Counted from the first letter of the whole stretch, positions 15,991 through 38,632 are shown. The stretch: 56,825 nt of DNA, filler included, from Sluysia triapertura (GCA_046118255.1; 4 parts of 4 records of this genome joined end to end with filler, not necessarily neighbours in it), one strand, 5' to 3'. A program made the numbers and translations. Notes: generated from the sequence alone by a model not told the origin.

Positions 15991-17970
15991 TGGCCTCGTG
16001 TATTTTATAATAACGTTTCAAAAATGATTATAGTTATAATTTGCTATTACTCTAATAAAATGTTTTCATGTTATTTTTATTTTACTAGCCCTCAGAGGCA
16101 TATGAACAATATTTTAGTGTGCCTTAAGCACCAAATTTCCAATTATGTTAAATATAAAAGTTAATAATAGTTTTAATTTTTGTAAATTTTATAAATTAAA
16201 TAAAAACTTGTTTTTAATAAACGGAAACTTTATAGTAAATCAATCAATATTTAATTCAACAATAAAGGTATAAAATTATTTATAATTTTACGAGAATTAA
16301 TACTTATTAATTCCGAAATTTTAATATTTTAAAAAAGCTGATTTTGGAGGCTTCTTTAAAATAGCACATGAAAAATGGTAATTAAGGATCTTGTCTCTGC
16401 AAACATGAATCAAATTTTTCTAATCTATATAATATCTGAGATTGAATAGTTCGAAATAAGAATCGAGTGTGGTGGCCAACCTATTATCTTAATAAAATTT
16501 ATTAAAAATTTATTTAAATATATCTTAAATATTTTATACATTCTTTTTACATAAGTCATCAATATAACATGCAACCCAAGATCAACAACTTACATTTCTA
16601 AATTCACAATTTAATTCACTATAACTAAGATCATATCCTTTTGAACACCACACAACAACTGTTAAATTCTTCACAACCATTTTTATATCTTGTTTCTTTT
16701 TATATCCAACGAAATTAACTTCTATTTTGCAAAACATTTCAAATCTACCATTTACATTCAAAAATTAACATAAAACAATATTAAACTAAATCAACACATT
16801 CTACACAAAACCATACTCTCAGACATTTTAACATTCTCAGATTTACCTCTGCATTCATCCGCTAAAGTCAATTTAAATCTACAACCTTATAACATATAAG
16901 CCACGGTGACATTCAATATCATCAAATTATATTAAAAATTCATCCAAAATATTTTATTTTTCATCTCTGAACAATTCATTCAGAGTCACATTCGAAATTA
17001 ACTAACATACATCTTCAAAGCAATCCAAACATTCTAAATTCACGATCTTTTATTATTAAATTTTAACAACCAAACATGACCTTTTTTCAAAACACCAATG
17101 CACATTCATCACTCATTTTAACATTTATACTATCCTAAATTATTTAAGTCATAACCTTCTATACTATATTAACATCTTAAAACAATTTCATTTTTAGCAT
17201 TTTTAGTAATTAAATTTAATATGTCGAGAATAAAGGGAGAAGTTAAGAAAGATCGTGTGAATTTTTAGAAATCAAGACTTTGTGTTTTTGTTATTATTAT
17301 TATCACCCTTTTTATTTTTAATTTATTGTATTTTTCATTATTTTGATCAACTGAGTAGCTGCCATAATCAGCAATGACATTTTGATTTACATTTATAATT
17401 TCATGTCACCGTTGATGATGGTTTGTCATCACTGTGTATTTTAGTCGGCTGTAATTGTTATTGTCCTTTCGTTTATTACTATTGGTCATCCAACCAGAAC
17501 TAACATGACTGTTATCATTTTAACACCTCTGGTTGGATGACCAATCAAGAATTACAAGTAGTAGCGTTGAAAATTTGTATACTCAAATTAATCAAGAATT
17601 ATTTACTACCAAAAAAAATTTTAGAAAAATTACAGAATAAAATTTTGTATAATTTGCTTAGAAATAAAACTGATACAATAAATAATCAATTATTATGGAT
17701 ATCTCTACGTCTTCATGCATTTCTGACTATGATTGTTCTGAAAATAATAAAGATTATGATTACAAAGCTGACGATTATGAAGATTATGATTACAAAGCTA
17801 ACAATTATAAAGATGATGATTGTAAAGTTAACAATAACAAAAATGAAATAACCGTTGATTGCTCTGATGAAGTAATTAAAAATGTCGAATTAGTTAAAGA
17901 AGTTAAAGTTGAAGATGTTACCCTAGAACCAGTCAATGATTTGATTATTAATGACGAAGAAACGTTTAGT

Positions 17971-18125
17971 TTAATGGAAACAGATTTACATCGTATAATA
18001 TCATTCAAACAAGAATTCTCTGATGATCAAATTCGTTATTTTATGTATCAAATATTTTGTGGCTTTAATTACATTTATCCGTCTGCAATGATACGCGAGT
18101 ACTTGAAACCTGCTAAGATTTTGGA
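17971..18125 (+). pseudogene. MAP kinase (ERK/p38-type) subdomain V-VIb fragment embedded in an element ORF
   Basis: LMETDLHRIISFKQEFSDDQIRYFMYQIFCGFNYIYPSAMIREYLKPAKIL aligns with MAPK LMETDL..II..Q.LSDDH..YF.YQILRGLKYIHSA.V.HRDLKPSNLL. The catalytic HRD is lost. Confidence 0.85.
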
Positions 18126-18192
18126 ATGTCAAGGTCTGTTGAACAAATGAATCCAATACGGGTTTTATTATATACTTCAAGATGTTCTAAAG

Positions 18193-18726
18193 ATGGTACA
18201 TGAATTCCGACAATTAAAAAGGTTATTGCGTAATAATCCTATTTATAATATTAACGTTAAAGAACATATGTTTTTAGTAACCTTGAAAGCCTTCCAAGAA
18301 ATTATTTATATGTTAATTGGCGTAATCAGAAAAAGGTACAACGTATGCAGAATCAAATTGATAAAGTCTTCCTTTTACGAACAATCAGAGAACGACGATC
18401 AGAATGGTGATGTTAGTGACAAGTTTAATCATAGTTTTGAATGTATAATGCACGAATCCCAAATGTTATTAATAACACGTTTATTTAATCTGACTCTTTA
18501 TTCATTAAATAAATTAAATTGTTATGCAACAATAAAGAGTAACACTCTGAAAAATCATACTCCATCCAATGTATACTTGTTTCATAAAGGTAATATGACT
18601 CCTAAAGGTTTTATATTATGCATCCAAAATATCAACGAATTGTTTAAATTTAAAGAAGTTGATAAAAATAATGATTACGAACTTAACGATTATAAAATTA
18701 ATGACTATGAAGCTAACTATAACTAA
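18193..18726 (+). CDS. 177-aa ORF of unknown function within family A copy 1
   Basis: Long open frame for such AT-rich DNA, in series with ORFs 17695 and 18748. Probably part of a disrupted longer ORF. Confidence 0.35.
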   Translation: MVHEFRQLKRLLRNNPIYNINVKEHMFLVTLKAFQEIIYMLIGVIRKRYNVCRIKLIKSSFYEQSENDDQNGDVSDKFNHSFECIMHESQMLLITRLFNLTLYSLNKLNCYATIKSNTLKNHTPSNVYLFHKGNMTPKGFILCIQNINELFKFKEVDKNNDYELNDYKINDYEANYN

Positions 18727-18747
18727 TGTGATGATTACGAAACTAAC

Positions 18748-19305
18748 ATGATTGCCTTTTGTCCATTCGCCACAGTTAAATATGGCATATGTGTAAAGAA
18801 TGCAAGTCATTGCTGTTACGCCCACACAGTCTGCGAATTGAGGTCCACCAAGGAAAACGATTCAAGCTACAACTATCATTCTCTTAGAATTACCAATATC
18901 TTAAGTAGCCTCAAAGTAATTATTTATTATCCTTTTTACAATAACATTAATTTTCGTGATTTTTATTTAGGTGACGAACTAGTTGGATCAAGAGTTGGCA
19001 CATTCAGGATAAAATTAATAAACTTTGAATGTAATTTTAATAAATTTTTATGTGATTATCGTTCGTTTATAAATTTTTTTCTATGTCAAAATTCTCATCA
19101 CAACAAAGAATTAAGAAATGATAATTTGATTAAGATTTCAAATTTTCTTTTTAAATTCTATTTAAAATTATTTAAGAGTTCAATTATAACTCAAAATATA
19201 ATTAATCACAATAAACCACAACATCGAGTAGAAAATATTTTGAAGAATATTAATTTTATTGTGACCTTGAATAAAGAAATTGTCGGACAGTGTGATGTTA
19301 TTTGA
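18748..19305 (+). CDS. ORF with atypical CCCH zinc finger (C-x9-C-x6-C-x3-H)
   Basis: CPFATVKYGICVKNASHCCYAHTVCELR. It is in frame with ORF 18193 across one stop. Paralogous motifs occur at 25195-25260 and 34911-34976. Confidence 0.55.
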   Translation: MIAFCPFATVKYGICVKNASHCCYAHTVCELRSTKENDSSYNYHSLRITNILSSLKVIIYYPFYNNINFRDFYLGDELVGSRVGTFRIKLINFECNFNKFLCDYRSFINFFLCQNSHHNKELRNDNLIKISNFLFKFYLKLFKSSIITQNIINHNKPQHRVENILKNINFIVTLNKEIVGQCDVI

Positions 19306-19446
19306 AAGATGATCTTTTACAGAAATTTCTCAAGTTTTCTGTGTGTGATTATGCATTTTATTATTTATCTATGCATTCGATAGTTTTGTATGTTTATGAA
19401 TTATTAAATACTACTTTAAATGCAGTTACTAAGGGATTTCAAACTA

Positions 19447-19946
19447 TTGGGTTGGTGCATAAATTCGTACGGTTTTACTAGTTGCAAAGAAAACACAACA
19501 ACTTCTTGTTTCAACTGATTTGATTTATATTCATTCAGCTGAATTATCTATTTAAATCATTTTAGACTAACTTTCAATTTAATTACCCTCATTAAAATGG
19601 AATGTCATGTAGATAAAAATTAGCATTCCGGCATCTACTTCTTTTATATTTCCGTTCAATGTCGAACCATCTTTCTGGTCTCACATTTGAAAACGAAGAA
19701 GCAATAACATAAATTGAAGAATTTTTCGACCAAAAATGACCAACTTCTTCAAAAGTGGGATTGACAAACTGCCTGAACATGGAAGGAAGTGATCGATTGT
19801 GGCGAATAATATCTCACCGATTGAGACAGATATTTGTTTTTGCTAATGATTTAATAAATTCATTTTGTTATCTGGAATTTTTTGCATTGTTTTTATTCTT
19901 GATCAGTATGCATTTTTCATATTTGTAAAAAACCGCACCAACTTAA
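19447..19946 (+). mobile_element. Internally deleted mariner element
   Basis: TA|TTGGGTTGGTGC...GCACCAACTTAA|TA. The transposase start (MECHVDKN..RHLLLLYF) is fused directly to the C-terminus (RSMSNHLSGLTFENEE...FFKSGIDKLPE.WKEVID). Confidence 0.85.
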
Positions 19947-20894
19947 TATTTTTGAGATTCAAGGATTCCACAAACTTGAGGACATTCAATTAACAAATTA
20001 GAACAAATTTTTGAAGAAGTATTACAATAAAATATTATATCATTTCAGATAAAACTTAACTATGTCTAACCAAGAAGCACGGTCATGATTATATTTTATT
20101 ATTATTACTATTATTATAATAATTAATATTATTATTATCTCTTTGGCTTATTACATACACTTTGTGCATTTGCTAGATATTTTATTACTCTTATCTGCAC
20201 AATGAATGTGTTCGCCTATAGAATTAGCACACGGTTTGTACCTGTGTGATTTCTGAAGTATATTAGTATTGTCTGTGTGTCTATCTTATTCTTTAGTGAT
20301 TACTGTTATAAAATCTTATTAATCTTTATATTACTCAAATAGTTCGTGTCTAATAATCATTTTGGATTCTTAAATTATTTATGAAAGAACAAACACAAAG
20401 ACTCTTTGAAATTTATTACTCAAATGTAAAGATATTAAAATATACAAAATCAGATTCGAATAAAAATATCGAAATAAAATAAGAATGTTAAACCCAGATT
20501 TAAGGTATGTACAAAAGTGATATATTTTACCTCTATTTTAAGACAAATAAATCTTATTGTTTAAAAATGCGATGAAATCGGATAAGTTCCACAATAGTTT
20601 TCCTTTTAATCCACTTGATGATTAATTTGCCAAAAAAATTAATCACGTCGATCGTATTATATAACTTGAGAATTAATAAATAAATCGATTTCGACATCCT
20701 TTTATAATTTTAGTGAGCAGAAGCACTTCGTATAAATATTGATATTATTTAATTAAATAAATCACTTAATTTCAATTTTTAAAATAAACGTTTAAATAAA
20801 GTAATTAATTTAATAAAATAAACATACATTTGATTTTTTCATTTCCGCTATTACAAATATGTTTTGATTAATCAGTAAAATATTTTATATAATG

Positions 20895-21316
20895 TGTTAG
20901 TTTACCTACGATCCTAGATTTACGACTAGTCCGTAGGATTTGAATGTAAAGCAAAAATTTGCATGAGGTTATCTGTACTTATCTCGGTAATAGTTTTAAA
21001 CTTATTTATAAACTATACAGTATTTATAATTTTATAATTTTCTTTTATTCAGAATAGGATTAAAATGCAATAATTAATTCACAAATTAATTTTCCACTAT
21101 TAAAGTGAGGTAAGTCAAGTCGTTTATTTAAACAGAATTTTACTGAGATTCCTTATCCATGGAGCCTTTTATAATTTTGATTATAGTGGTAGATTTAGCA
21201 TAAGTAAAAATATATAATTTTATAACGTAATTAAATACTTAAAGTTTTCAATTAAGTTGCGAGGTTTTTATCCTCGAAATGCAAAATGATAATTCTGGAG
21301 AAGAGTTCACCTAACA
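20895..21316 (-). mobile_element. Family B solo-LTR-like copy
   Basis: On the minus strand it starts TGTTAGGTGAAC and ends with the CCTACG..CGTAGG hairpin followed by TAAACTAACA. Confidence 0.55.
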
Positions 21317-22689
21317 GAGACGTCTTTTATCTGGTCTATTAGGATTTTAAAATTTAGTCACGTAGTACTTAAAAGTGAACTATGATCACTCACGTAATCC
21401 CCAATTTAGGTTGGAATAAAAATCAAATTTAGATATTTTATAATATTTTGAGTTAGCCTTTTTACGGTATAACTTAGAATTTCGGATTTTAAATTAGCCT
21501 TTACGGTCTAATTATATCTTTTGATATTTTAAGATTTTTAGCTAGCCTTATTGCGGTCTAGCGTGGAAAATAATAATTTTATTTATTCACAAGAATAAAA
21601 TGATTCAACCTCAAAGTATATTACTAAACAATTATACAAAGAGTTATAAAAAGAAAAATTTATAATATAAATAAACAATTTACCAACTTAAATCAATATG
21701 ATTTAGTGGATTAAATTTTAAATGTATTTTAACTTAGCCTGTTACGGTTTAAGTAAAAGATTATCTAGTTTAAGTTAATTTTATATTCTCCCGGTTACTG
21801 TGAGAATAATAAAACCTATACAAAATATCTTACTTTCATGGGCATTGAAGAATTGTCGACGATTATATGGTTTCTAAAAATCTCACTAAAATTCAACACT
21901 TATATAGTGAATTTTTAGTCACCATATTTATTTTTCTTTTTTCTTTTTTAATCTAATGAAACAAATATATTTATTAATATTTTATAATTTAATTTATTTG
22001 AAACATTTATAATTAAAATAACATTATTATTGATTATTTATTTTTATTTAATTTATTTTATAATTTAGTTTTTTACTTAATTTAATTTTATAATTTATTT
22101 ATCAATTTGCTGTGGTTTTTACTGATGCCTAAATCTAAACCTTCGACAAAATGGAAAATTGAGCAGAGTCCGGTTACAGTAATCGTCATGTCTTAAAGAG
22201 GGCACTTTTGTAACAATATAAGTTAAGTAGAACGTATTAACCTAAACTGATAATTTAAATATGACAGGGTCCAAATTATAATGATTTAAGGTTCAATTAT
22301 TATGTATCAAATAAAATCACAAACGTCTAATAAAATTTTATTTCAAAATTACAAAAATTAAGTAACTAAAGTTGTTTATAAAATAAAAGATACAAAAAAA
22401 CAGAAGGATCAAAAATTACAATAGTTTAATATATCGTTAAAATTGACTAAATGTAATATTAATTTAAGTAGATTTTAGGATATTAACTTCCTTAAATAAA
22501 GTTAATATCAATATTAAAACAAACAAATTACTTTATTTATGGACATAAAATTGAATCTTGATCGTTGTCTCCAAATTCTAAAAAATTCCAAGATGCTCCT
22601 GTCGAATAGGTTTCCAAAATTGAATTATGGTGACGATTGATAGATTAAAAATGATGTTCCAAAAACTGCTGCACAATGATTTTAAAAAT

Positions 22690-23002
22690 TAGGATAATTT
22701 CAAAATGGCGATTTTCATTGTATTGATGCTAGTTTATATACTAGTCATCATCCAATGAAAATCGATGGAATGTTCTAGAATCTTCTATACTATTTTTAGA
22801 AGCTAATTTTATTTTTTAGAAATTTTATTTTCTTTTTTGGAAAATAATTGTTTTTAATGTAATTTTAAAGATTAACAAATGATTTTAAAACATTTTCCAT
22901 GATTTTATTTAATTTTCTGATAATTTTATATAGTTTTAAATAATTTTAAGGTGTCATTATGACATCTTAAAATTATTTTGTAGGGTTGTGATGACAACCT
23001 AA
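22690..23002 (-). mobile_element. Family C repeat copy
   Basis: Reverse-complement homolog of 6387-6700, ending TAGGGTTGTGATGACAACCTAA. Confidence 0.65.
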
Positions 23003-23865: not shown

Positions 23866-23867
<2 letters not shown>

Positions 23868-23913
<46 letters not shown>

Positions 23914-23984
23914 TTTATTTTTATTATTAATTTTGAACTCTGAGAAATAATAATTATTATTTAAACGTTGAAATTTTATTTTGA

Positions 23985-24036
<52 letters not shown>

Positions 24037-24129
24037 ATTATTATTTGTTTAGACTTTGAACTCTGACAAAATTATTTTTTAGACTGAACTCTGACACATT
24101 GGACACATCTTGACTACTACTACTACTAC

Positions 24130-24185
<56 letters not shown>

Positions 24186-24190
24186 TTTTC
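23868..24190. repeat. Compound (ATT)n/(ACT)n microsatellites interleaved with GAACTCTGA units
   Basis: Three long ATT runs and three gaactctga copies are visible. Confidence 0.9.
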
Positions 24191-24229: not shown

Positions 24230-24540
24230 AGAATTGAATTACTTTGTATGCATTCTATATTTTATGCACTTCGTATTAGATTTAACTGAAGGTATAATCT
24301 TTCGTCAATATAAATCTTTTCTATTGACTTATTCTGTAAATATTATTTGTACTTTATCTATTACGTTTGTGTTATCTGGAAGTGTGAACTCGAATACTCG
24401 TCTCCGTTATTCGAGATAGAAGTGCTTAACGAGAATCATAATTCTTCAGAGTTTATTTATCTGAATTCTTGTATGTTTTTCCATACCATTGAAGAGATTT
24501 TATTTTGATTTATTAAACTTATTTAATTCGCTTTGTAAAA
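24230..24540. repeat. Interspersed repeat homologous to 39440-39720
   Basis: Shared block attacgttt..ttatctg.aagtgtgaa.tcgaatactcgtc.c.gttattcgagata. Confidence 0.7.
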
Positions 24541-24599: not shown

Positions 24600-27101
24600 G
24601 GTAGCAGAAGCACAACTGAGAAATTTGATTAGTTTATTGTAGGGAGAAATGTGCGAAATATCGACCTAATTGTGGTGATAGTGTTATGTTTTTATAAATT
24701 GTATTGAAATTTAGCACGAAATTGTTATATTTAGATGAATTTATTAAAAGACTTAATTTATTAAAGTTTGATATCATTAGGAAGTTTTGGACTATAAAAA
24801 TGTAATCATATTTAATTAAATTACTTTCAACTTTATTAATTATCAAATAATTACAAAAATAAACACTTAATTGAACTTTATTGTTTACTAAAGAAATACA
24901 AAAATTTACAAGATTTACATTTAAATTTTGCCGAGGTTTAATCGTCTTCTGAGTATGCTTCACTATATCGAAAATTGATGTTTTTAAAGTCCTAAAAAGA
25001 TATAAGTAGTATAAATATAAGATTCGATTTATATAAGGACAAATTACATTAAAATCTAATATTACTTTAAAGTTCTGTTTGTTGCTCCAGTCCTATGGCG
25101 ATGATGTAATACTTAATAATAAGTTACTGATCCTTCGATGATGATCATTGAGATACGAAGTTAAACTAAACAGGTGTCTAATTTCGAAAGCTTCGTGACC
25201 ATAGATATAGTTTCTGCCATATCGGGAACACTCACCATTCTGCATTCTTCCGTATAAACATAAACCACTTTTATAATATTTGCATTCATGAGCATAAGTT
25301 TGTAAATATTTACACGAAGATATGTTGTTACTATAATAATGTTCTAAATTGTCAGTCTTTGTTTTTACTTTCGTCATGTCTTTTACTAATGGCATAATTT
25401 TGTTTGTAATGACATACTAGTCAACATCAATGGGTACATGTATACTTTCATCTATTTTAATCACTATATAACTTGGAGCATTAAGATGATTGGTATCTAA
25501 TCTTTTTATTTGAAAGTTATGAGATATCTCAATGAATTTTCTTGTATCATCTTGTTTTGCATTTTGTTTGCCTATTAATTTTAACATACAATTTGAAGGC
25601 AAAGGGCGAATTTCGATTCTATGATTGGTTCATTAATGAATTCTAATATTTTTAATACTAATTCATCATATTGTTCGATCAACACAAATTTTAACGAAAT
25701 ATTATCCAAAAGTTCATATTTAGATACCATAGTTTGCATAAATAATTACTTTATACTAAAATAAATTTAAAATTGATATAAGTTCTTAAAACTTTAATTC
25801 GGATTTGATAAAATAAAATATAACCTGAATTGTTTTTTTATTTTCACCATAAAACTTCTAATATTTTACCACAGAGTTAAATATTATAGTCTAAATATTC
25901 GCAAACAAAATTACAATTTTGTTTTTACCTAATGATAAGCATGACACTCGTTTAATAAAATTTTCTAATAAACATCAACTGAAATTGGTAAAATTAATTT
26001 GTTCAAGTAATGACTGTTAACAAATTATGAAAACGAGTTTTTCCATGATTGGGCGTCCAATTAGATGAGGCAAAAATATAAAGTAGAAAGGCAATTAATT
26101 GGACGTCCAATCAATTAAAGTAATCTACACATGGTAACTGTCACCAGTTGACAGTTTAATACAATATAATGATTTAGTTTAATACATCTGTCAACTGGTG
26201 AAGACAAGATTAGATAACTAATCACGAAAAAGATAATAGTACATAATAATGAATAAAATAAAATAACAATAATAATAATAATGATAAATTAAATAAAAAC
26301 ATAAATTTCTTTCTTTGATTATTAAACGAGCTTTCTATTTATATGTACTTTTATTTAATTATCATTCTTAATATAATATTAACTTAATAAAAATTTCTGT
26401 TTTTAGAAGTCATAGAAACTAAATGTTAAAGGATTGTAAACTTCAAATGCTCTGGATTAATCTTTCACGTTTTCTATAATACTTTAAGATATCATTGTGA
26501 TTCTAATGTTGTAAGGTAATGTTTAAAATGTTTTAGCTGAGTTTTAAAATGTAGATTGATAGTTTTGACTGAAGGCAAAATTTGGACGTTGAAAACTTGT
26601 GAATTGAGATGTTTCTAATAAGATTGTGGTTAGGATGTTAATAGATTGTGGATTTAAAATGTTTAAGATATTAAAAATGATTTCAGTAAATCTGAAAGAA
26701 ATGAAATATAGCAACGGTTTTGATACATTCTAAAAGGTAATTATACAATGTTAAAAATGTCCTTATGATTGTACTGTTATGGAACTATGAATAAAATGTT
26801 TTTCATGAATTTTTTAAATGTATGTTATTAATTCTGAAAGTGAATGTGATTTTAATATTATTATGTTATAAAATAGGAATGTTTTGAAAAGGTTAGAATA
26901 AGATTTTAGTGAATGTAAAGGAAATAAAACATGAAAACGGTTTTGATGAAAAAATTGGTTAAATGTTATAAAATATGATTTTATGTGCAAAATGTTGAAT
27001 TAAATTAACGATGTTTTGAGTTAATTTTTTAAATATATATTTGATGACTTGTGATGTTGATTATAATTTAATAAAATTTGTTAAATAGGTTGGCCACCAC
27101 A
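24600..27101 (-). mobile_element. Family A element copy 2
   Basis: Terminus at 27101, tract 26340-27080, hairpins at 26141-26201 and 26047-26112, then a disrupted ORF from the ATG at 25739. Confidence 0.55.
25093..25739 (-). pseudogene. Disrupted family A ORF (about 210 aa) with CCCH-like finger
   Basis: MQTMVSKYELLD... / ...YYKSGLCLYGRMQNGECSRYGRNYIYGHEAFEIRHLFSLTSYLNDHHRRISNLLLSIT, with one frameshift and one stop. Colinear with 34620-35070. Confidence 0.65.
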
Positions 27102-27409
27102 CTAATTAATCTGCTTAGTAATACGTATCAAGTTAAATTTACTGTCAAGTTCATTCTAACGGTTCTTAGTGTGTCGCGGTTTATTATAGAAGGTTTTAAT
27201 TACACTGCTATCGTTGACAAGCGATGTGCACTGGGCCATTCATCTCGCATTTTGTCTTGTCCAATTCAGAAGATTCAGAAATATTCATATTCTTATTTCA
27301 CAATTTAGTCATAATCATTAGGATTGTACTTACTAATCAATCCATATTGATTTTTATTACAATCAATGAATGAAATTTACCACTTTTACCACTAATTCAT
27401 TTATTTTAG

Positions 27410-27635
27410 AGCCTTAAAAGTCGGAGACCCTTTAAACACTGATACCTTCATGGGTCCTTTAGTTTCCAAGGAGCACATGGACAAGGTCTCATCATATCTA
27501 ACGAAAACAACGGGAAAAGTCGTGTGTGGATTCGGTGTGGATGATTTGTGTCTTTCTGAGGATTTACGAAAGGTTATTTTTTCAGACCTAAAATCTCTTC
27601 GCATTTAAAATAATCGAATGAGATATGTCAGAACT
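27410..27635 (+). pseudogene. Aldehyde dehydrogenase (ALDH8A1-like) fragment
   Basis: After a ttttag acceptor it reads ALKVGDPLNTDTFMGPLVSKEHMDKVSSYL...VVCGFGVDDLCLSEDLRK, then frameshifts into GYFFRPKISSHLK*SNEICQ. The ORF track lists only the antisense frame. Confidence 0.8.
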
Positions 27636-29540: not shown

Positions 29541-29640
29541 NNNNNNNNNNNNNNNNNNNNNNNNNNNNNNNNNNNNNNNNNNNNTTAATTAATTAANNNN
29601 NNNNNNNNNNNNNNNNNNNNNNNNNNNNNNNNNNNNNNNN
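29541..29640. other. Artificial contig linker
   Basis: N-TTAATTAATTAA-N, 100 bp. Confidence 0.95.
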
Positions 29641-29985
29641 TCTTTAATCTGTTATTTTGATTTAGATCCAAATCGTGTATTTTATTTAATGCTTGATGTG
29701 TTAGAATGGCCCCTAGAATATACACAGATATTTATTGATTACCTTAAAACTAATAGACAAGATATATGCGCCCTAATTCGAAACAAATCAACTATAGATT
29801 GCCCACCTAAACTATTTTATAAATTAAATCGTATTTTTGTTATGAACAATCTAATAAAACTTAATAATATTTGTGAGTATTTACTACCAACTGAGCAAGA
29901 AACTAAGAGAAAGCTCAACAATATTTTAATTCTTTTAAAAGAACCCACTACACCCTTATGTAACCTCTTAATGGTAAAAAATTAA
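29641..29985 (+). pseudogene. THOC2: THO complex subunit 2 N-terminal region fragment
   Basis: SLICYFDLDPNRVFYLMLDVLE...PPKLFYKL...NLIKLNNICEYLLP matches THOC2 [22 protein letters not shown]...TPSSLY...NLIDLDDLYVHLLP. It is cut by the gap on the 5' side and abuts the family A tract on the 3' side. It could instead be a true exon. Confidence 0.72.
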
Positions 29986-29989: not shown

Positions 29990-30575
29990 AAGTGTAATTT
30001 TAAATGTTACTTGATATTTTTAAGTGAAGTAATGCTTTTGTCTGAAGATAAGCTTAAGTAATGAAAAGTTATGATTTACTTCTTTCGAAATAACATTGAT
30101 GTTTGAAGTGGATTGTAAATGTATACTGGTGTTTGAATGAAAAAAATGTTTAGTTGTTAGGATTTAATGATAAAAGATTGTGAATTTATAATGTTTGGAT
30201 TGCTTTGAAAATGTCTGTTGATTAATTTCGAATGTGATTGTGATTGAACTGTTAAGAAATGAAGAATAAAATGTTTTAGATGAATTTTTAAATGTAATTT
30301 AATGTTTTTGAATGTACTTGTGGTTTGAATGTTATGAGATTGTGGGTTTAATTGATTTTAACGGGTGAAGATGTTTTGGTGGATGTAAAAGAGATAAATA
30401 TGGGAATGTTAAAATGTTTAAGAGTGTGGTTTTATGTACAATGTGTTAATTTAGTTTAATGCTGTTTTCTGTTGATTCTTGAATGTGATTTGTAGATTTT
30501 GAGAATGATTATTAGGTTATCGAAAGTTTATGTAATTTTTATAAAACTCATTAGGGAAATAGGTTGGCCACCACA
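29990..30575 (-). mobile_element. Family A terminal tract copy
   Basis: Ends AGGTTGGCCACCACA and aligns in reverse with 16468-17100 (for example tttggattgctttgaa vs ttcaaagcaatccaaa). Confidence 0.65.
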
Positions 30576-31089
30576 AATTCGATCACCTAAATTCAAGTCA
30601 AAGCAGTAGTTCGTCTGGCGTTCAATCCAATCAAATCCCAAACCAGGTCCAGAAATCCCGGTATGAAACCTTCGGCTTTTCGTTTTCCAATACTCCTCCA
30701 GTTCAAAAATCCATGATTAAATGTACTCTGCGCATTCGTGATGGACGCATTGGCAGAACAGTGGGAAGTTCCAAATTACTCAGAACGAAAACCCACGTGC
30801 CTCAGCCCGAACCTCTACCTAAACTGGCCACAGCACGATATCTGGGAAATACAACCAGGATTTCAAAACACACAAATAGGTCTTAAATCATCTAAAGTGT
30901 AAATAATAAATCTTAAAGAAAAATAATATGTATATTAATAAATAAATAATAATCGTAAGAAAAATTCAGTAATTTTGTAAATTTTTGTAAATTTATTTAA
31001 TAAAAGTAATAATAATTGTAAAAAATATAATAAATTAATCTTTATGTAAAAATGAATATTTATATTTAAATTATAAACCATAATAAATT

Positions 31090-31245
31090 AATCGTCATTA
31101 AATAAAACGGATGTACATTAAATTGGAATATTTATATTATAATTTATAAATAATTATTTTGTTTATAATCAAAATCGTCATTAAATAGAACGGATGTACA
31201 TTAAATTAGAATATTTATATTATAATTTATGAATAATTATTTTAT
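31090..31245. repeat. About 83-bp tandem duplication
   Basis: aatcgtcattaaata.aacggatgtacattaaatt.gaatatttatattataatttat occurs twice. Confidence 0.85.
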
Positions 31246-31425
31246 TTAATAACGAAAAAGGATATTGTGATTGTTTATTAAAAACTAAACGGATATTTGT
31301 ATTACCAAAGTGTACAACGAGAAAAAGATATATAAAGGTTTGAAAAAATATTAATAACGATAATAAGAATTTTTAGACTTATTTTAACGCACAATTATTA
31401 GTTGTTGAAAAATTTTAGTCAATAA

Positions 31426-31584
31426 TTCGATTTTGGTAAAGATATTTCAATTTTGGTAAAGATATTTCAATTTTGGTAAAGATATTTCGATTTTGGTAAA
31501 GATATTTCGATTTTGGTAAAGATATTCCGATTTGGTAAAGATATTTCGATTTTGGTAAAGATATTCCGATTTGGTAAAGATATT
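31426..31584. repeat. 19-20 bp minisatellite (TCGATTTTGGTAAAGATATT) x8
   Basis: Head-to-tail units with no spacers. Confidence 0.92.
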
Positions 31585-32639
31585 GGTGAAACAAATTATT
31601 CGGTTACACGACTCGATCTACTCAATTTCGGATACTCTAATATTCAAACAAAGATTACGTAAGCTATTTAGTTATAAGATTTATGACCCTATTCTTCACG
31701 GTCTTAATATCTGACGTAAAATCTAAATAGACATTTTTTAATAGGACACCCACAAGTACTTTCTGGGTTAAAATCTTACTTAAATTTGTAATATATATAT
31801 TATTATTATCATTAAATTGCTCATATTATTTAAAATTTTTATTGTTCCTAAAATTTTATTGTTGTTTTATACCTTTTTATATTTAATAATAAAAATTCCC
31901 ACACTCAGTGTTTTGTTGTATTATTGAATAAGAAATTTGTAAAATTTAGCTGAGAGAAAAATAATAATTGTGATAAACTTAGACATTAAATAAAAGTTTT
32001 TATTTTTAAAAGATTAGAAGTCAATTAAAGAAAGTTAAAGAATTTTTTGAATTTGTTAATAGTTGTAAAAATATAAAAGATTTAAAAAAGGAGTAAAGAT
32101 ATTTAAGTACTAATAAGGATATAGTTTAGAATTAATTATTTTCTTTTGAATACATTATCAGACTAAAATATTAGATAAAAGTTTAACCTCAAAAAATACA
32201 AAAACATTCTAACATCAGAGCATACAGTACTGACCCTCTTTAATTCATTTGACAAAGCTTTAAAATCCTACGCAAACGTCCATTATAGGTAAACAGTTTA
32301 GCGTAGGCGGACCCAAAATATAAATTTAATATTTTTTATAATTGTTCGAAGAGTTAAGGAAAACCGAACACAACTTATACAATATTATAACCAACAATTA
32401 TATAATGACAAATGGATAATCAGAGCAACAATAATTTATCGTCACACTACTAAGCAAAATTGAAACAAATGAAATATCAAATACTAAAAATTTTTGAATA
32501 TATTTTAAATTAAATTATCCCCTCGCATACGCACGAGGGCAAAACATTTAGTTCAGAAAATTTTACGGGCCGAAAACAAAAAATATATATGTATTTCATT
32601 TTTTATTTGTTTTATTGCACAAACTGATTAAAAAAAGTA

Positions 32640-33375
32640 CAAAAATTTAATATTGTTTCGACGAACACTAACTAATTTCATAATGTCAAGTCTTATGTTT
32701 TGAGATAATGATGTTCTTAATGTTAACCTTGATCTATGTGACGATTTATTGATTTTTAGCAAAGAAAAAAGCTGCTCGCACAAATAAGTACATCCGAACG
32801 TCCTATAAATTTTTGAAGCAAACAGTCCATTTCATTAAAGTTTTCAGGAAAATACGAATAAAACTCGGGTACCTACTTCGTTATATTTTTCTTGTAGTGC
32901 CGCATTGCATTGAATTTCTACCAACTCTATGTGCACTTTGCTTCTTGCTTTTTCAGCATTATACGAAAATGGGGCATTGAACAACAAAGAATCTTTTTCA
33001 CACGCTTGAAAGCTGTGAAATCTTATTTCAATTTGTAACAACAGATCGTCAAAATATGAAGTATATTTGACAAAATTACAATTAATATTCCATTCTTTAT
33101 AACCTTTACAAGCGGGAAAATGAACTAAATCACAATTTTTTAGTTGTTTTTTCCAAATTGCGAGTTCCAATTGAAATGCCTTAATAAACTCTCACATTTG
33201 TGTGACAGCTATATTTAGACTCTAAAGTTTTAAATTTAACTCATTTAAATGCCGCGTAATATCGGTTATAAAACTTAACTCCTGCATCCAATTTTTATCT
33301 TTAAATTATTCAACTGACTGATCTTTCATTTCTAAGAACGTTTTGATTTCATTACGAAGTTCCCAGAACCGCATC
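32640..33375 (-). mobile_element. Degenerate hAT transposase C-terminal half (Buster/SPIN/GTF2IRD2-like)
   Basis: RFWELRNEIKTFL...FITDITRHLNELNLKL...HFPAC...IELVEIQC...FGCTYLCEQLFSLLKINKSSHRSRLT, including the hAT dimerisation motif, with stops and frameshifts. Confidence 0.88.
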
Positions 33376-33654
33376 ATTTTTTTGTTGCTGTGGTCATTAA
33401 TTTTAAATCAAACTGCCAGCGGTTGACAGTTAATTAAACAAAGTAGTATCAATAGTATTTACTGATAGCTGGTTATCGTTATTACTAACTCTGTGCTTCC
33501 ATTGGTTGTCCAACCAGAATTAACATTGCTATCTTGTCTCACTTTCTGATTGAACGATTGATTTTCATTAGAGAGCTATTTTTAGAATTATTTTATTATT
33601 TAGACAACATTTTGTAAAAATTTTTATAGATTTAGATTATTATATTTTGAACAG

Positions 33655-34515
33655 GTGTTGAAAATAAAAATAAAACTACAATAGTAACTGATGAAATCAT
33701 TGATATAGTTCAAGAAGAATGTAATAGATTAAATAATTCTACCGTTGTTAAGAGGCGCAGTGTTATAGATGGATTATTAAGAGAAATTTTCGAATTTATT
33801 GAGCAAGAATGGGCAAAATTACGGCAAATCAGTGATCTAAAACCTTTTATAGAAAAAGTTTGTTTTCTTAAATTTTATATTGAATATAATGATGTTGAAA
33901 TTAAAAGCAATAATAAATTATATCGTAGTTGTGTAAAATTATTAAATCATGCTGTAAAACGTCCAGATATGTTTAGTTGGACTCATTTACAACACAATTT
34001 TTGCGTGGAAGATGAAACTGCATTAACAAATATTCTTTACATGGGTGATGAGCATGATGTAAAATTTTTTGATGAATTTTTAAATAATTACGATGGTAAA
34101 TTGCACGGAAATTTTCCTTTTAATTTTGATGAAAGATTATTTAGTGTTGTAATCTTAATGATAACCATGATTGGAAAAAATTATTAAATTGTAAAGTATT
34201 AGATCGAAATACTACTGAATGTCCAACTATAATATATAAAACTGTTGCAGAGGTATTTGGTCATGAACATGATTATGGCAAATTAATAAATCGTTATTTA
34301 GATACTTTTAGTTCAAATGAACACGTTGCAGACAAAGTGACACCGAATTTTGATAATGAGTCAGAAATGACGAAGTTAGATGTAAAATTTAAAGATAACA
34401 TAAAAGTATCGAATACCGTAGTAAGTAGTAAAACATTAGGGCACAGTCGTGATGAAATAACCCATAGATTCCGATCATTACTCTATCGTCGCCGTTTTAA
34501 GTACGTATCCATGCA
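33655..34515 (+). pseudogene. EZH2: Enhancer of zeste (EZH1/2) N-terminal half, frameshifted, no CXC/SET domain
   Basis: Open frame from 33657 (..IEQEWAKLR..VKLLNHAVKRPDMFSWTHLQHNFCVEDETALTNILYMGDE..NYDGKLHG). A shifted frame follows with a SANT1-like segment, TPNFD and THRFRSLLYRRRFKY (compare SLHSFHTLFCRRCFKY). Confidence 0.85.
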
Positions 34516-34599
34516 GAACACCGTGTTCAATGTATAATAAGCCATCCTATTGTCATACAGTTATAGTTATCAATGAATGTTGTATAAACCACAAAGAGA

Positions 34600-35075
34600 C
34601 AAAAATATCAAATAAACAAATGATTGAAGCTTGCGAATTATTAGATGCAATTCAAGAATTATCGATGAAAGTCGGACTGGATCAGGAAATTAGTAATAGA
34701 GAAATGAAGTTAAATTCTACAATTCCTTTTCGTACAAGCCTCAAAAATTAGATTTAGAATCTCAAACTTTTACTCTGATAAAGTTGCACAAACAGCTAGA
34801 CTTCATCTTTGATCTTGATGTTTTTACAACCAGAATTCAAATGATTCCATCAGTGTTGTACACAACAAAAATGGACAACAATCTTCAATCTTATGATTAA
34901 GTCCGGTTTATGTCTATGCGGTACGATCCAAAGTGGAAAGTGTTCAAGATTCGGCAGCACTTGTTTGTATTCACATGATGCGTGCGAATCGTAGATATTT
35001 TTGGTTGGACGTCAGACTTGATAAATCATCATCGTAGAATCCACGAATTGATATTATCTTTGACGATACTTCGGC
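34600..35075 (+). pseudogene. Disrupted family A ORF with C-x9-C-x6-C-x3-H finger
   Basis: QMIEACELLDAI..., KLDLESQTFTLIKL...DLD, KSGLCLCGTIQSGKCSRFGSTCLYSHDACE and FGWTSDLINHHRRIHELILSLT all align in order to 25093-25739. Confidence 0.65.
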
Positions 35076-35593
35076 TTACAATGCACCAAACATGCTTTTT
35101 TATTCTTCTATTGTTATTATTATTACTATAACTATTTATTTATATCCTTTATTTTTCTTTAGGAGTTCAAAAAGTCTATTAATGAGACATAATCAGGAAA
35201 TAATCGACGCAGAACAAAATTTAAGTTTACATGTTAATTTTTGTCTTTGTTTTATGTATTATAAAATAAAATTAAAAATAAAATATTAAAAATAAATGAT
35301 ACTAAAAAATTAGTATATAAATATCAAAGTAATTTAAAATTAAAATTTATAAATATTAATTCACAGCTGGTTTTGCAGAATTATGCAAGTCTACATTAGT
35401 GTTAACTGGTGTTGTTAAGAAAAATCAAACAATGAATACCAAATCAATGGTAGAGTTAATGTCTCAATGTAATGTGAACCACAACCACCGAGATTTTTCA
35501 GATTACCCCTTGTCATGTTTTCCAATTTTAGATAGAGCCCCTGCTATTCATTTTGAAAGATTTAAATTTCTGACAGTAGTGAAGTACCTATAG

Positions 35594-35828
35594 CAGTGAT
35601 TCCCAAAGTGGTCTATATCGAGCCCCAGGAGTCGCTCTATGGAGCGAGTGAGACGCATATAAAATGCTCCGAGATCAAATAAAAGCAGTTTTCGACCGAC
35701 GATATTAATTATATTAATAATATTATATTTTTATAATTTTTTTGCAATTTTTGAAATTTCTTGCCACTGACCCCCAATTTTTCTCACTTGCAGGTTTTCA
35801 TCGACATATACCACTTTGGGAATCACTG
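35594..35828. mobile_element. hAT-type MITE
   Basis: Perfect 18-bp TIR CAGTGATTCCCAAAGTGG / CCACTTTGGGAATCACTG. The 8-bp TSD is not preserved. Confidence 0.75.
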
Positions 35829-36899
35829 ATCCAGAATTAAAACTTCCGTCGTATATTTGTTGATAAGACAGTTAAATGTGTTCAACAGGAAAGTTTCAAT
35901 GGTTTGTTTTAGTAATTATTTCATTTACTGTCTACCATCGGTTTGTCGAGAATATAAAGGAAAAATTAAAGTTGAATTTATTTTTACATACTTTTGATGC
36001 GAGTTTAACGAATTAGATCAAATACATTTGTAGTATTTTTATTGTGACAACAGAAAATAAGGATTAATTATAACAAATTAAGTTTTTAAATTATACTTAA
36101 TAGAGATCGAATAAAATATATTTGGACAGAAGACAATAACAATAATTACAACATTGTATCGAAATCACACGTTTAAGAAATATATGTTAAAAACTTTAAA
36201 AATTTTAAAAACTATATAAATCTTTATTTACATTCTTCGTATATCGCTAAATGTGACGTTGAAATCAATCTACCCTGGTTTATATTATTTTTGATTGGAA
36301 CATTAACTTATTTTAATAACAAAACACGTTACTATAATTTTTCTAAATTTAGTATCACATTTTAAAATGTTACCAAATTAAAAAGTAATTGTAAGAAAAA
36401 AAACTACAAAAATAAAAATTCAATAGTGAAATGGAATAATAAAGTTAATTTATTTTAAATGAACTTCAATTATAAACAATTGAACAGTGTGCATTATTAA
36501 GAATTGTATAGAAAAAATTTAGCTTATTTGAATTAATATTTTTATTGTTTTGCAACAAGTAGTTATACGTATATATTTTAGGTAATGACAATAATTAAAA
36601 ATTTTAATAAATTTATCTATTAAATTTTTATGTATATAATGTCATGAATTTGTTGAAAAATACTATTTATATGTTTCAATATGAATGTTTTTAAGGTACT
36701 TATTTAAATCATATGATTACAATTAGTTCAAGGAATCATATCAATAAGGGGTTATGTAACCATCACAACATTTATTCAGCGATTTATTAAGTATTTTAGA
36801 ATTAATAAAACTATTATAGATAAGATTTAAATTTTTATTAAAGAGAATAAAATTGTTAAAAACTTCTGGTTTAGTTATTGCAAAATTTTTATACCTTAA

Positions 36900-38632
36900 T
36901 TTATTTAATAATAAATACATTTAAAGGAAAAATAACTAAAATAAGATCTAAGGCATATATTATAAACTAAATTTATTGATTTAATAAAAATTTTCTTCAT
37001 AAAATGAAATTCAAATGATAGCAAATGTTGATGCCGCATTGAAAATATTACGATCCGTACGCTAAAATGGTATTCAGACATATAAGGACACAATGAATAA
37101 AAAATGATAGTAATGAAATAATAAATACAAAAGACAAAGATATACCTTAAACGAGTAGACTCGTGGCGAATATGACGTATAACTGAGTTAGGCATAAACA
37201 TATTTGAACCAATTTAATGCGAGTGGTAGGTGATTGAAAAATCCACTGTTTGAAGGAATTTACTGGAAAGGATTGCATTATATAATAAATGGTGAGTTAT
37301 GTTATTGAACTAAATTATAATTACATGTATCGGCTGAACTGATATAATTGATGAAATAGTTTCATTAAATATATTGTTAAGATCCAATGTTAGAAAATCT
37401 GGAGAAGTTAGATAAGTATGTTAGTTTTTGGTTCAATATTCAGTGCAGAAGATGCTTTTCTAAATATCATATAACTAATAAAATCGTCATCATTTGCTTT
37501 CTAAGCATTGGTTTTACAGTTATTACATTGTTCTTGATCTACATTATGTCCACATTTATTTGTTTGAAATGATTTATATTCACTTTGATGTTTTTTAACT
37601 ACGATATCTTTTAATACATTAGTTCTTCGAGAAATATTATCAAAATCTTTTCTTAATTCAATGAAATCAGTGGAACAATTCTTTAAATCATGAGAAATGG
37701 CTTTATAGCTACTACTGGATACTTCATTGATTTATTATTCATGATATTTAATCGATCGAGTATATGACTAATGCTTTGTTCGATTTTATAAATGAATTCT
37801 GACATTAGTTTTTTTGTTAATCTAATTTTATCATTGGTTTTTAAGCTACTAATTTTTAATTTACTGTACGTATATGATGATTCCCAAAATTTTGTAGTAA
37901 TAATAGTTTTCTGATAGTTTTTGTGTACAAAATTTTTAAAAGTGATTATTATTGTGGCATACAAATTGTGATCAATTTTTATTGGCCAATCAAAGCAACT
38001 TCTTGTTGTTGCACCACTTTAATTAAAATTTTTGGTGTACAGTCAGAGTATCAGTGAATGATACACTGACTAATTATAAGATGTCATTTGTTGACAGAAA
38101 AAAATTTTAAATAATGACAAACTGTCCAGACTGACAGTTAAAATAAATGTTAATAATATATTAATAATTAATAATGATAATAATAAAATGTAATAATGTA
38201 AATAATAATAATAATAAAATAAAATAACAATGGCAATAATAATAAAATAAAATAAAAATGACATAAATTTCTTTCTAAATATTATTTCTTAATATAACAA
38301 TAATAATAATTATGAAATAGAAATAAAAATTCATAAATTCATATCTTTTTCTTTACTTTTCCTTTAGATAATTTTCTTTTATTCTTGAAGTTCAAGAAGG
38401 AGATGTAAAGGTTAAGTGAGAATGTAACGAAGATTGTGAAGAAGTATAAAAGGAGAGTAACAATGTAGTTAAAAGTGTTAAAAGAAATTTCAATTAGTTT
38501 ACTGCTTTAAACTAGATTTAAAATGCAAATTTAATTATTTTTGATGTTATGAATGTTTTAAGTGTTGTAAAAATGTGATTTTTAGTGTAAAGTAATGAAT
38601 TAAAATTTTGAATGATAAAGTTGGCTACCACA
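36900..38632 (-). mobile_element. Family A element copy 3 with degenerate unknown ORF
   Basis: Terminus TGTGGTAGCCAAC at 38632, then a tract, an agaaagaaatttatgt block and ctgtca/tgacag hairpins at about 38040-38140. Long but disrupted frames follow at about 37200-37980. Confidence 0.5.

Follow-up and report, generated by a model that had tools for sequence, protein, structure and literature searches.

Six loci of a family of related units (65–77% identity) lie in the window analysed here, a 56,825-nt stretch of Sluysia triapertura DNA (copies A to F; Table 1). The host is a long-branched animal, probably a spiralian. The units combine a conserved side, made up of a terminus, a skewed tract, a spacer and hairpins, with a variable side carrying one long reading frame. 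An exact 14-mer terminus occurs at 13432 and 16468 on the plus strand and at 27101 and 30575 on the minus strand, where about 7e-6 exact copies are expected by base composition; a fifth terminus, at 38632 on the minus strand, has 2 mismatches. All five are followed by a tract with C in excess over G (skew 0.48–0.76 over 300 nt). Homology links the tracts of A, B and D (local-alignment z of 30 for A–D, 11.5 for B–D and 5.0 for A–B; 0 of 200 shuffles each), and their alignments gave identities of 77% (A–D) and 68%. The order of terminus, tract, spacer, hairpins, ORF and finger put forward in the original prediction is complete in A and B and incomplete elsewhere, and stands for 2 of the 6 loci in total. 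Two termini thought to be bare are not: the one at 30575 carries a full tract homologous to those of A and B, followed by an antisense THOC2 fragment and an assembly gap, and the one at 13432 has a tract of about 250 nt, though it cannot be aligned to other copies.

Table 1. Features of the repeat units and their cargo (positions in the window)
Feature	Position	Strand	Remarks
Copy A, complete unit	16468..19223	+	2756 bp; TG...CA, 7-of-8 terminal inverted repeat
Copy A left target-site duplication	16463..16467	+	TCGAG
Copy A right target-site duplication	19224..19228	+	TCGAG
Copy A conserved terminus	16468..16481	+	14 nt
Copy A tract	16482..17200	+	C/A-rich, G-poor (opposite strand G/T-rich); homologous to B, D
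Copy A spacer	17200..17340	+	purine run, then T-rich/(TTA)n
Copy A hairpin module	17345..17560	+	CCAAT motifs
Copy A chimeric single-frame ORF	17695..19305	+	internal stops 18148, 18724
Copy A Asp/Tyr-rich repeat	17747..17841	+	second copy 18662-18736
Copy A MAPK fragment	17872..18123	+	in frame; catalytic-loop HRD not kept; best E-value 4.2e-10
Copy A middle segment	18151..18723	+	191 aa; no Pfam, Atlas or significant PDB match
Copy A CCCH finger	18754..18849	+	Unkempt finger 3-like
Copy A candidate GT...AG intron	18916..18970	+	55 nt; also open in frame
Copy B, complete unit	24671..27101	-	2431 bp; TG...CA, perfect 7-nt terminal inverted repeat
Copy B target-site duplication, near end	27102..27106	-	ATTAG
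Copy B target-site duplication, far end	24666..24670	-	ATTAG
Copy B C/A-rich tract	26420..27087	-	
Copy B double hairpin	26046..26200	-	
Copy B ORF frame	24634..25629	-	internal stops 25419, 25095
Copy B finger region	25177..25290	-	Unkempt finger 3-like; third Cys position not kept
Copy B counterpart of candidate intron	25065-24992	-	74 nt
Copy C, probable distant member	36029..38632	-	terminus (2 mismatches), 16-mer as in B; short tract, own hairpins
Copy D	30000..30575	-	terminus and full tract (77% to A), no hairpin module
THOC2 fragment by D tract	29641..29898	+	cargo or unrelated flank; E-value 0.003
Copy E, near end lost	33405..35487	+	hairpin module, frameshifted ORF; far end approximate, by alignment to A, B
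Copy E E(z)/EZH N-terminal fragment	33780..34139	+	about residues 50-170; EZH1 E-value 2.5e-16
Copy E weak MCSS match	34445-34504	+	E-value 0.093
Copy E finger	34899..34979	+	Unkempt-like
Copy F	13432..13700	+	exact terminus, short skewed tract

Definition of the far ends and target-site duplications, a check proposed earlier, was achieved for A and B, and revealed perfect 5-bp duplications that the original prediction had missed in both. In a test devised only after the match had been noticed, the combination of duplication and terminal repeat arose in 3 of 20,000 shuffles for A and 32 of 20,000 for B; as a base rate, 9 other such spans were found among 1107 TGT starts, versus 2 of the 5 family termini. 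The TG...CA ends, 7-of-8 terminal inverted repeats and perfect 5-bp duplications constitute an integrase footprint. A and B were each inserted by an enzyme that joined TG...CA ends and duplicated 5 bp. Homology ends at the termini, and the flanks are not common to different copies. Neither A nor B contains a long terminal inverted repeat (TIR), the repeat being only 7–8 nt and the two ends asymmetric, and no internal LTR pair or terminal direct repeats were found within either. Termini C, D and F yielded no far end flanked by a duplication. A Pack-MULE or Pack-TIR with the 14-mers as paired TIRs was rejected, since none of the 6 inverted pairs has a perfect duplication; the best pair, 13432/38632, agrees at 4 of 5 positions.

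A, B and E also have homologous hairpin modules (z 4.1–8.0; 0–1 of 200 shuffles). In A an 18-bp perfect inverted repeat forms the second stem (17481-17498 / 17528-17545), and in B the arms measure 13 bp (26200-26188 / 26154-26142) and 18 bp (26113-26096 / 26063-26046). Folding z-scores were -3.3 for A, -5.3 for B, -2.85 for C and a non-significant +0.8 for E. The claim that copy E keeps both module and ORF is thus upheld as to homology of the module, with a frameshifted ORF, but its hairpins as a whole do not fold significantly. In hairpin 2, 90.7% of 54 cells stay paired, with 3 two-sided changes, a weak covariation signal (36 of 500 shuffles; 3 sequences). Hairpin 2 of A and of E carries in its arms a motif, TGGT..CCAACC, that resembles the terminus. 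From its CCAAT motifs we infer that the module is promoter-like.

The remaining loci are less complete. Copy C, predicted to be a full copy, has the terminus, a similar layout and a 16-mer shared with B at the start of the spacer, which occurs twice in the window (0 of 300 shuffles); this is only a weak link to the other copies, as its tract, hairpins and far part gave no significant alignment with A, B or E, and a Pfam scan found no CCCH finger. Its far end at 36029 is tentative (TIR 6/8, flank 3/5, not significant). The remainder of D was lost at or before a gap at 29541-29640, and the THOC2 fragment is antisense to the orientation of the D tract.

The frames of A and B pass open through the far terminus and stop in the flank, at 19303 and 24636, respectively. 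The open stretch to the terminus starts at 18916 in A (308 nt) and at 25065 in B (395 nt); such openness was seen in a fraction of 0.0004 (A) and 0 (B) of 5,000 dinucleotide shuffles, and the terminal CA lies in the same codon phase in both (1-in-3 by chance). Over their whole length the frames hold 3 stops, whereas 2,000 shuffles never gave fewer than 24 and 11, respectively. With a reading frame that crosses the far terminus without a stop, the unit appears to have been cut out of a longer sequence. The frame of copy E closes about 200 nt short of the estimated end, and over the stretch leading to that end its openness does not exceed that of shuffles (P 0.37).

The cargo consists of host-gene fragments. 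The MAPK fragment predicted in A is real, and the pair of Asp/Tyr-rich repeats brackets it together with the unassigned middle segment. What had been taken for half of E(z) in copy E is real for about residues 50–170, with a weak MCSS match; the rest was not borne out, the next piece of frame having no PDB match, and the Pfam scan gave no SET match in this copy. The N-terminal motifs present are what we take to be the end of E(z) that serves PRC2 assembly. In copy B no cargo could be identified apart from the finger.

CCCH-like fingers had been predicted in A, B and E, and Pfam located all three (zf-CCCH_UNK, PF25427; E-values 1.9e-6, 1.6e-4 and 2.8e-3, each of the three below the curated cut-off). 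The best PDB match was finger 3 of Unkempt (UNK; 5ELH), with E-values of 0.043 for A, 0.043 for B and 1.2e-5 for an A+B profile; the next family scored 0.021. Unlike Unkempt, the copies have only one recognisable finger, and B lacks one Cys position. The expected alignment of B with E runs from the finger into the downstream segment (66% nucleotide identity over 584 columns). Codon-position comparison shows the Unkempt-derived finger to be under purifying selection, with B and E identical at 79 of 109 first and second positions and 26 of 56 third positions (p 0.0012). The finger, originally regarded as the element's own, is captured host sequence.

As predicted, the family is devoid of recognisable gag/pol, DDE transposase or RepHel genes: a Pfam scan of 264 of the 361 stop-to-stop frames of at least 40 aa, with low sensitivity to decayed pieces, gave no reverse transcriptase (RT), integrase, gag, RNase H, Rep/helicase or SET match. 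The sole transposase-type match in the window is weak and lies outside the family (49909-50304, E-value 0.009). No Rfam ribozyme matched at E ≤ 1 and no tRNA was matched; one miRNA family matched weakly (E-value 0.076). No PBS- or PPT-like flank was seen at the five near termini or two defined far ends, except a 5–6-nt TGG start at F, and no direct pair of units surrounds an internal domain within the window. A full-length LTR retrotransposon, LARD or TRIM was rejected, A and B having no paired LTRs, PBS or PPT and the scanned frames no gag, PR, RT, RH or IN match. Penelope, Terminon and retrozyme identities were rejected for lack of a hammerhead ribozyme at Rfam E ≤ 1 and, in the scanned frames, of RT. 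Helitrons make no target-site duplication, have TC...CTRR ends and encode Rep/helicase; a Helitron or Helentron was rejected, as A and B have 5-bp duplications and TG...CA ends and the scanned frames gave no Rep/helicase match.

Our preferred reading, with a probability of about 0.6, is that several related large-LTR retrotransposon families gave rise to A and B as solo LTRs and to D, E and, probably, C and F as broken ones. The TG...CA ends, 7-of-8 repeat, 5-bp duplication and lack of a long TIR make an LTR-like identity a better fit than a classical Pack-type one, and an ORF that leaves through the far terminus is expected of a solo LTR, so the unit is probably no free-standing element. The original idea of a non-autonomous gene-capturing element thus survives in part: the units are TG-ended, integrase-inserted and carry chimeric ORFs, but they are probably not free-standing and their finger is host-derived. 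With no internal domain, PBS, PPT or paired LTR at the five near termini or two far ends, the parent retrotransposon is unobserved.

Under the solo-LTR reading, a full element (LTR-internal-LTR) would integrate, and LTR-LTR recombination would delete the internal domain, leaving a single LTR between the halves of the duplication. The ORF would begin inside the LTR, with the hairpin/CCAAT module acting as its promoter, and in the full element would run on into the internal region. A stretch of unkempt may have been acquired by an ancestor, and MAPK or E(z) pieces joined later in individual families; the simplest route would be RT template switching to co-packaged mRNA. The few stops would have arisen after insertion. 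There is a slightly better than even chance that the ORF is sense to the genomic RNA, located in R/U5 and heading towards gag, in which case the three main cargoes would all be sense, the arrangement that template switching predicts. At a little under even odds, the ORF would be an antisense gene in U3, with the tract a long G/T-rich U5 and the spacer holding the poly(A) signal; both the G/T-rich stretch and the AATAAA motif suit the strand opposite to the ORF, although at 25% GC this motif is frequent on either strand.

MMTV sag and HIV nef are sense ORFs overlapping U3. Antisense accessory ORFs are described in Grande, RIRE2 and Retand, and an antisense promoter in the 3′ LTR of HTLV (PMC7264820). 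The units share with all of these, as far as described, an accessory ORF at an LTR border that is possibly LTR-driven; those of Grande, RIRE2 and Retand lie between pol and the 3′ LTR and are described without host homologues, whereas ours lie in the repeat and form a host-gene mosaic. LTR ends carry a repeat of about 7 bp with consensus TGTTRNR...YNYAACA (PMC3601003). Solo LTRs of Ty3/Gypsy or BEL/Pao elements, in the accounts of PMC3601003 and PMC3532108, likewise have TG...CA ends, a terminal inverted repeat of about 7 bp, a short duplication, no mobility coding and a G/T-rich stretch at one end, which here is on the strand opposite the ORF; the present units differ in measuring 2.4–2.8 kb, with about 1–1.6 kb of selected frame and host-gene fragments inside the repeat. 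Plant Ogre LTRs reach 1.9–6.5 kb, the rice Retrosat2 LTR exceeds 3.2 kb in an element with ORF0, and planarian Burro has many host-like domains (PMC6431247, PMC3485330). Compared by these descriptions, our units resemble them in LTR size class, a fast-evolving extra ORF and, for Burro, host-like domains, but their ORFs are internal and none is described there with an Unkempt finger or E(z)/MAPK. Template-switch capture by LTR elements is documented in animals, partial host mRNAs, sometimes of several genes, being fused into the element (PMC5131818); the cargo described there is young and replaces internal ORFs between LTRs, whereas here it is strongly diverged and within the TG...CA unit.

Several observations were counted against the solo-LTR reading: just 2 of 6 loci are complete; the candidate intron occupies matching positions in A and B and would suit transposition at the DNA level no less well; the THOC2 piece of D runs opposite to the other cargoes; the frame of copy E is not open to the end; and the captures in PMC5131818 replace internal, not LTR, sequence. 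The alternative that survives best, though unlikely, is a non-autonomous DNA transposon, complete in itself and with very short TIRs, mobilised by an integrase-like (Ginger/Tdd- or IS3-like) transposase, with Pack-like capture of host DNA. It would accommodate the candidate intron and the lack of an internal LTR domain, and a transposase might recognise the TGGT..CCAACC motif in hairpin 2 of A and E. Tdd-4/5 also yield TG...CA ends and 5-bp duplications (PMC2836005), and GingerRoot elements carry intron-containing gene fragments and often lose the transposase (PMC6839031). TGT ends, sizes of 2.6–7 kb, introns and captured gene fragments are described for Ginger1, Ginger2/Tdd, GingerRoot and Pack-TIRs (PMC2836005, PMC6839031, PMC8277862). 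However, the TIRs described measure 40–270 bp in Ginger1, 50–180 bp in Ginger2 and 100–150 bp in GingerRoot (PMC2836005, PMC6839031), all at least 40 bp against 7–8 bp here, which led us to reject these three. Duplications are 4 bp in animal Ginger, 5 bp in Tdd and 6 bp in GingerRoot (PMC2836005, PMC6839031), and the 5 bp of A and B agree with Tdd only, among the Ginger groups compared. No ORF crosses the end in the Ginger groups as described; a frame kept open through the terminus would be useless to a self-contained element, and the two ends are asymmetric.

Other mobile or viral DNA, such as split-repeat (DIRS/Ngaro), Penelope/Terminon or Helitron-type elements or the end fragment of an integrase-using endogenous DNA virus, is improbable: hairpins, (TAA)n tracts and gene capture are known in such groups (in part PMC6431247), but two copies have TG...CA ends with perfect 5-bp duplications, and no Rfam ribozyme or tRNA and, in the scanned frames, no recombinase, Rep/helicase or RT was matched. 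An unkempt-derived host gene family expanded by segmental duplication, with incidental termini, would account for the selected finger, CCAAT motifs and candidate intron, but is largely refuted by the different 5-bp duplications of A and B and is highly improbable, given that homology stops at the termini, flanks differ, a single Unkempt finger of several is recognisable and the N-terminal cargo varies from copy to copy.

Captured genes inside a 2.4–2.8 kb LTR-like unit would be an unusual location for retrotransposon cargo, as capture known so far places host sequence between LTRs. If the units are solo LTRs, capture inside the repeat would double the cargo in each full element, outlast the recombination that normally erases the element, and open a way for new chimeric genes to arise complete with a promoter. 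Selection has preserved an RNA-binding finger between families that differ by 35%, which points towards an accessory role in the element, and the presence of E(z) sequence lacking the catalytic domain suggests an anti-silencing decoy. A more speculative and rather unlikely extension is that in an animal retrotransposon clade the LTR serves as a gene-capture cassette, in which a border-crossing ORF built on the Unkempt finger plus a family-specific, non-catalytic host fragment would be selected as a decoy or regulator of host silencing and signalling, each solo LTR spreading a promoter and a chimeric gene. If the units are instead self-mobile, they would represent a short-TIR, integrase-type Pack element unlike the Ginger groups as those are described. 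In annotation, such copies will be mistaken for host MAPK, E(z) or unkempt genes.

The conserved 14-nt terminus occurs four times exactly in the window and once more with two mismatches, against an expectation of ~7e-6, and a tract skewed towards C over G lies downstream of all five. Two complete copies (A and B) and four partial or probable further copies (C to F) are listed in the table. Homology beyond composition was found among the tracts of A, B and D and among the hairpin modules (two hairpins beyond the spacer) of A, B and E; between B and E it reaches the far end, in keeping with the proposal that E keeps the module and its ORF. Sequence identity among homologous parts of the copies is 65-77%. 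The module order first described for A, B and C is complete in A and B, whose tracts and hairpins are homologous. Neither C nor F gave a significant alignment with other copies past the terminus; one 16-mer is common to C and B. The termini of F and D, at first described as bare, are both followed by a skewed tract, which in D is homologous to those of A and B. The hairpins of A, B and C fold better than shuffles and those of E do not. In the second stem 90.7% of 54 cells stay paired, with three two-sided changes, a weak signal from only three sequences (12 and 36 of 500 shuffles).

Coordinates of element copies, gaps and host exons
Feature	Position	Strand	Remark
Copy F	13432	+	
Copy A	16468	+	
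Copy B	27101	-	
Copy D	30575	-	
Copy E	33405	+	without near end
Copy C	38632	-	
100-bp gap	15393-15492		six-frame stop spacer
100-bp gap	29541-29640		six-frame stop spacer
100-bp gap	45049-45148		six-frame stop spacer
Importin alpha-3 exon	51886-52587	+	then ~35-nt candidate intron; first half absent from the window
Rhodopsin-family GPCR host exon	1041-1244	-	
Myb-like (PF15963) host exon	15495-15716	+	
START host exon	44875-45048	-	
Host gene without assignment	8837-11583	-	

Profile searches of the window returned no further copies. Hairpins at 49690-49880 were rejected as a family member for lack of significant hairpin homology, as were tracts at 31850-32200 (no homology) and 47950-48900 (z of 2.7-3.7 with A and D, judged insufficient). 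An Rfam MIR827 match on hairpin 2 of A was weak (31 bits against a cut-off of 65) and was taken as a generic hairpin, and a tRNA search found none. A single 25-kb stretch of the window contains all six loci and the other 31 kb contain none; the family either is clustered locally or has a very high copy number. Hairpin 2 carries in its arms (17483-17545, 33503-33512, 26050-26109) a TGG...CCAA(C/T) motif, noticed post hoc, that resembles the 14-nt terminus; one protein might bind both, or the arms might pair with the terminus. A second partial terminus at 13196-13209 (+), with 10/10 central bases, lies 236 bp upstream of F within a stretch of 40% GC (13150-13360). Reading outward from terminus F, TGGTAT comes after 2 nt and resembles the start of a PBS, but it is too short to be taken as one. 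Adjoining terminus D is a block of 44% GC (30576-30886) with an open frame of 107 codons that matches nothing in Pfam; D may have inserted there into another element.

Far ends were sought by taking the sequence just upstream of each terminus and searching for it on the downstream side. Copy A ends at 19223 with ...CCACAACA and then TCGAG, five bases also present immediately before the copy; copy B ends at 24671 with ...TCACCACA and then ATTAG, its own upstream flank. Equally good matches arose in 3 (A) and 32 (B) of 20,000 block shuffles. The same rule, applied to the 1107 TGT starts in the window, passes 11 spans of 1-6 kb, two of them A and B; flanks of the other nine are A/T-only in eight. 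The far ends of A and B occupy equivalent positions downstream of the finger, an Unkempt-like CCCH zinc finger found in A, B and E. The terminal inverted repeat of A and B is only 7-8 nt; TG...CA ends with a repeat of ~7 bp are described as the LTR integrase signal in excerpts of PMC3601003. Nothing significant came from the downstream flank search for C, D and F, and the sequences flanking A and B have no empty-site paralogue in the window. The right flank of E enters a separate repeat that recurs at ~2290-2580; the missing near end of E was not recovered. The 14-mers were rejected as paired TIRs of large elements and are not long-range TIR partners, because a perfect target-site duplication (TSD) occurs in 0/6 inverted pairs. 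Also rejected were D with B, or A with F, as the two LTRs of a single element: their divergence is too great, and B is flanked by a TSD of its own.

A single reading frame spans 540 codons in A and 332 in B, each with 3 stops (shuffles have at least 24 and 11, respectively). No stop interrupts it between 18916 (A) or 25065 (B) and the terminus (0.0004 and 0 of 5,000 dinucleotide shuffles). Both copies share the codon phase in which the frame passes through the terminus, and it ends ~26 (A) and ~12 (B) codons inside the flank. A frame held open across the end would be of no use to a self-contained element, but does make sense in a fragment of a longer one. In E, which has several frameshifts, 198 nt are open (P 0.005), and the frame to the estimated end is not open beyond chance (P 0.37). 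At the same place A and B contain a GT...AG segment (55 and 74 nt) that is intron-like, yet open in frame; identities by codon position after its acceptor (29/46, 34/46 and 28/46) favour neither an intron nor coding sequence.

We interpret A, B and their kin as solo LTRs of related large-LTR retrotransposon families, with a probability of about 0.6. Both act like a solo LTR, whose class membership depends on a parent element unseen in the window. Integration of the full element would have produced the TSD, and recombination between its LTRs would have left a single one, which is how the solo LTR is defined in the relevant part of PMC3532108. The ORF would start inside the LTR and continue into an internal region that is now lost. 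Precedents for LTRs of 1.9-6.5 kb and for accessory ORFs rich in host domains exist in Ogre and Burro (PMC6431247) and in Retrosat2 (PMC3485330); capture by template switching, multi-gene chimeras included, is documented in animals, but between LTRs (PMC5131818).

The strongest competitor, a short-TIR DNA element of integrase type, would account for the candidate intron and the missing internal domain; GingerRoot elements are described as carrying gene fragments (PMC6839031, in part), and Pack-TIRs as present in animals (PMC8277862, in part). However, it failed the TIR-length test and leaves the run-through frame unexplained; we consider it unlikely. Ginger transposons have the TGT ends too, with TIRs of at least 40 bp and TSDs of 4 bp in animals and 5 bp in Tdd (PMC2836005, in part). 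Other element classes fit poorly with the TSDs and are improbable. A duplicated host gene family, for which the fit with the TSDs is likewise poor, is highly improbable.

For the proposed solo LTRs, the direction of the ORF can be argued both ways. Most transduced genes run sense to gag-pol, while accessory ORFs and LTR promoters in antisense are known as well (PMC7264820, in part). The usual direction would favour an ORF sense to the genomic RNA; the long G/T-rich end and the THOC2 direction favour antisense. Neither a PBS nor a PPT that would fix orientation was found in the flanks. CCAAT motifs (background 1.8 per kb) make the hairpin module a putative promoter.

The finger matched Pfam zf-CCCH_UNK in 3/3 copies, below the cut-off, in agreement with the CCCH-like finger first noted in A, B and E. 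In PDB, the fingers of A and B and an A/B profile all match finger 3 of mammalian Unkempt best (5ELH; E 1.2e-5 for the profile against 0.021 for the next family), and the finger is therefore host-derived and not, as initially supposed, the element's own. In the comparison of B with E, identity is 79/109 at codon positions 1+2 and 26/56 at position 3 (p 0.0012): the finger evolved under purifying selection as these lineages separated. As for cargo, the predicted MAPK fragment was confirmed in A, in frame and without the HRD motif, and the predicted half of E(z) was narrowed in E to residues ~50-170 and a weak MCSS match. Beside MAPK in A, a 191-aa segment (18151-18723) has no Pfam or Atlas match and no significant PDB match; a duplicated Asp/Tyr-rich repeat brackets both. 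Frame pieces of E (34145-34534, 34461-34748, 34751-34897) matched nothing in PDB. A THOC2 fragment adjoins the D tract in the opposite direction, and no cargo was identified in B or C. The window contains none of the E(z), MAPK and unkempt genes of the host itself. An isolated aldehyde dehydrogenase fragment at 27396-27605 (+; Pfam E 6.9e-7), between B and D, is an exon or a captured piece.

As first noted for gag/pol and RepHel, no Pfam match to RT, integrase, gag, RNase H or Rep/helicase was obtained among the 264 of 361 frames of at least 40 aa that were scanned, a scan poorly sensitive to decayed pieces because it missed transposase remnants recognised by eye. The 97 unscanned frames are mostly low-complexity tract or microsatellite, importin-overlapping, or 40-44-aa frames outside 12.5-42.5 kb. 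Homologue searches returned 0/311 candidates for the E(z) fragment, 0/319 for the finger alignment and no match to the B finger ORF among 1.84 billion representatives, and the Atlas protein search gave no usable match for 2/2 queries; these blanks are weak evidence of absent relatives.

The window is 25% GC, with three N44-TTAATTAATTAA-N44 gaps and one N136 gap. Order and orientation across the 100-bp gaps may be unreal, affecting copy D. The importin alpha-3 exon is 70-78% identical to most animal proteins among the matches listed, and in a tree of 23 rows it forms a long branch beside molluscs, at a fork left open in the tree (88/97); on this basis the host may be a bilaterian and probably a spiralian. 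Adjoining E, a decayed transposase-like frame without a Pfam match (32844-33400, -), which we take by eye to be hAT/Buster, probably truncated that copy. Small repeats with CAGTGATTCCC-like ends (2278-2632, 35494-35829, 15262-15340; 2308-2581 and 35507-35789 are 70% identical) are presumably hAT-type. Stretches at 46261-46978 and 47590-47919, without Pfam matches and with a 54-bp inverted repeat (46261-46314 / 46925-46978), were assumed by eye to be Tc1/mariner-like remnants. An inverted pair (48149-48900 / 50700-51176, ~81% identical) encloses an (ATT)n tract (49510-49650), the strong-looking hairpins at 49690-49880 and an ORF (49906-50304, -) that weakly matches DDE and HTH families in Pfam (E 0.009, 0.03), and is possibly a long-TIR element. 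Unclassified repeats outside the family lie at 14530-15186 / 40330-41100, 6527-6680 / 22701-22849 and 24276-24519 / 39476-39712, the last rejected as a family part, being outside B and unrelated; a 20-bp tandem array at 31422-31584 is also outside the family.

Extra ORFs in animal LTR elements are already known, as an excerpt of PMC5408684 records. No host-gene mosaic or Unkempt finger inside an LTR repeat appeared among the results listed by searches of open-access main text, though TE catalogues in supplements or Repbase Reports may hold this family, and the exact 14-mer was not found in open-access literature text, where only 12-mer matches under unrelated titles appeared. It is conceivable, if doubtful, that the LTR itself serves as a gene-capture cassette with selected decoy proteins.
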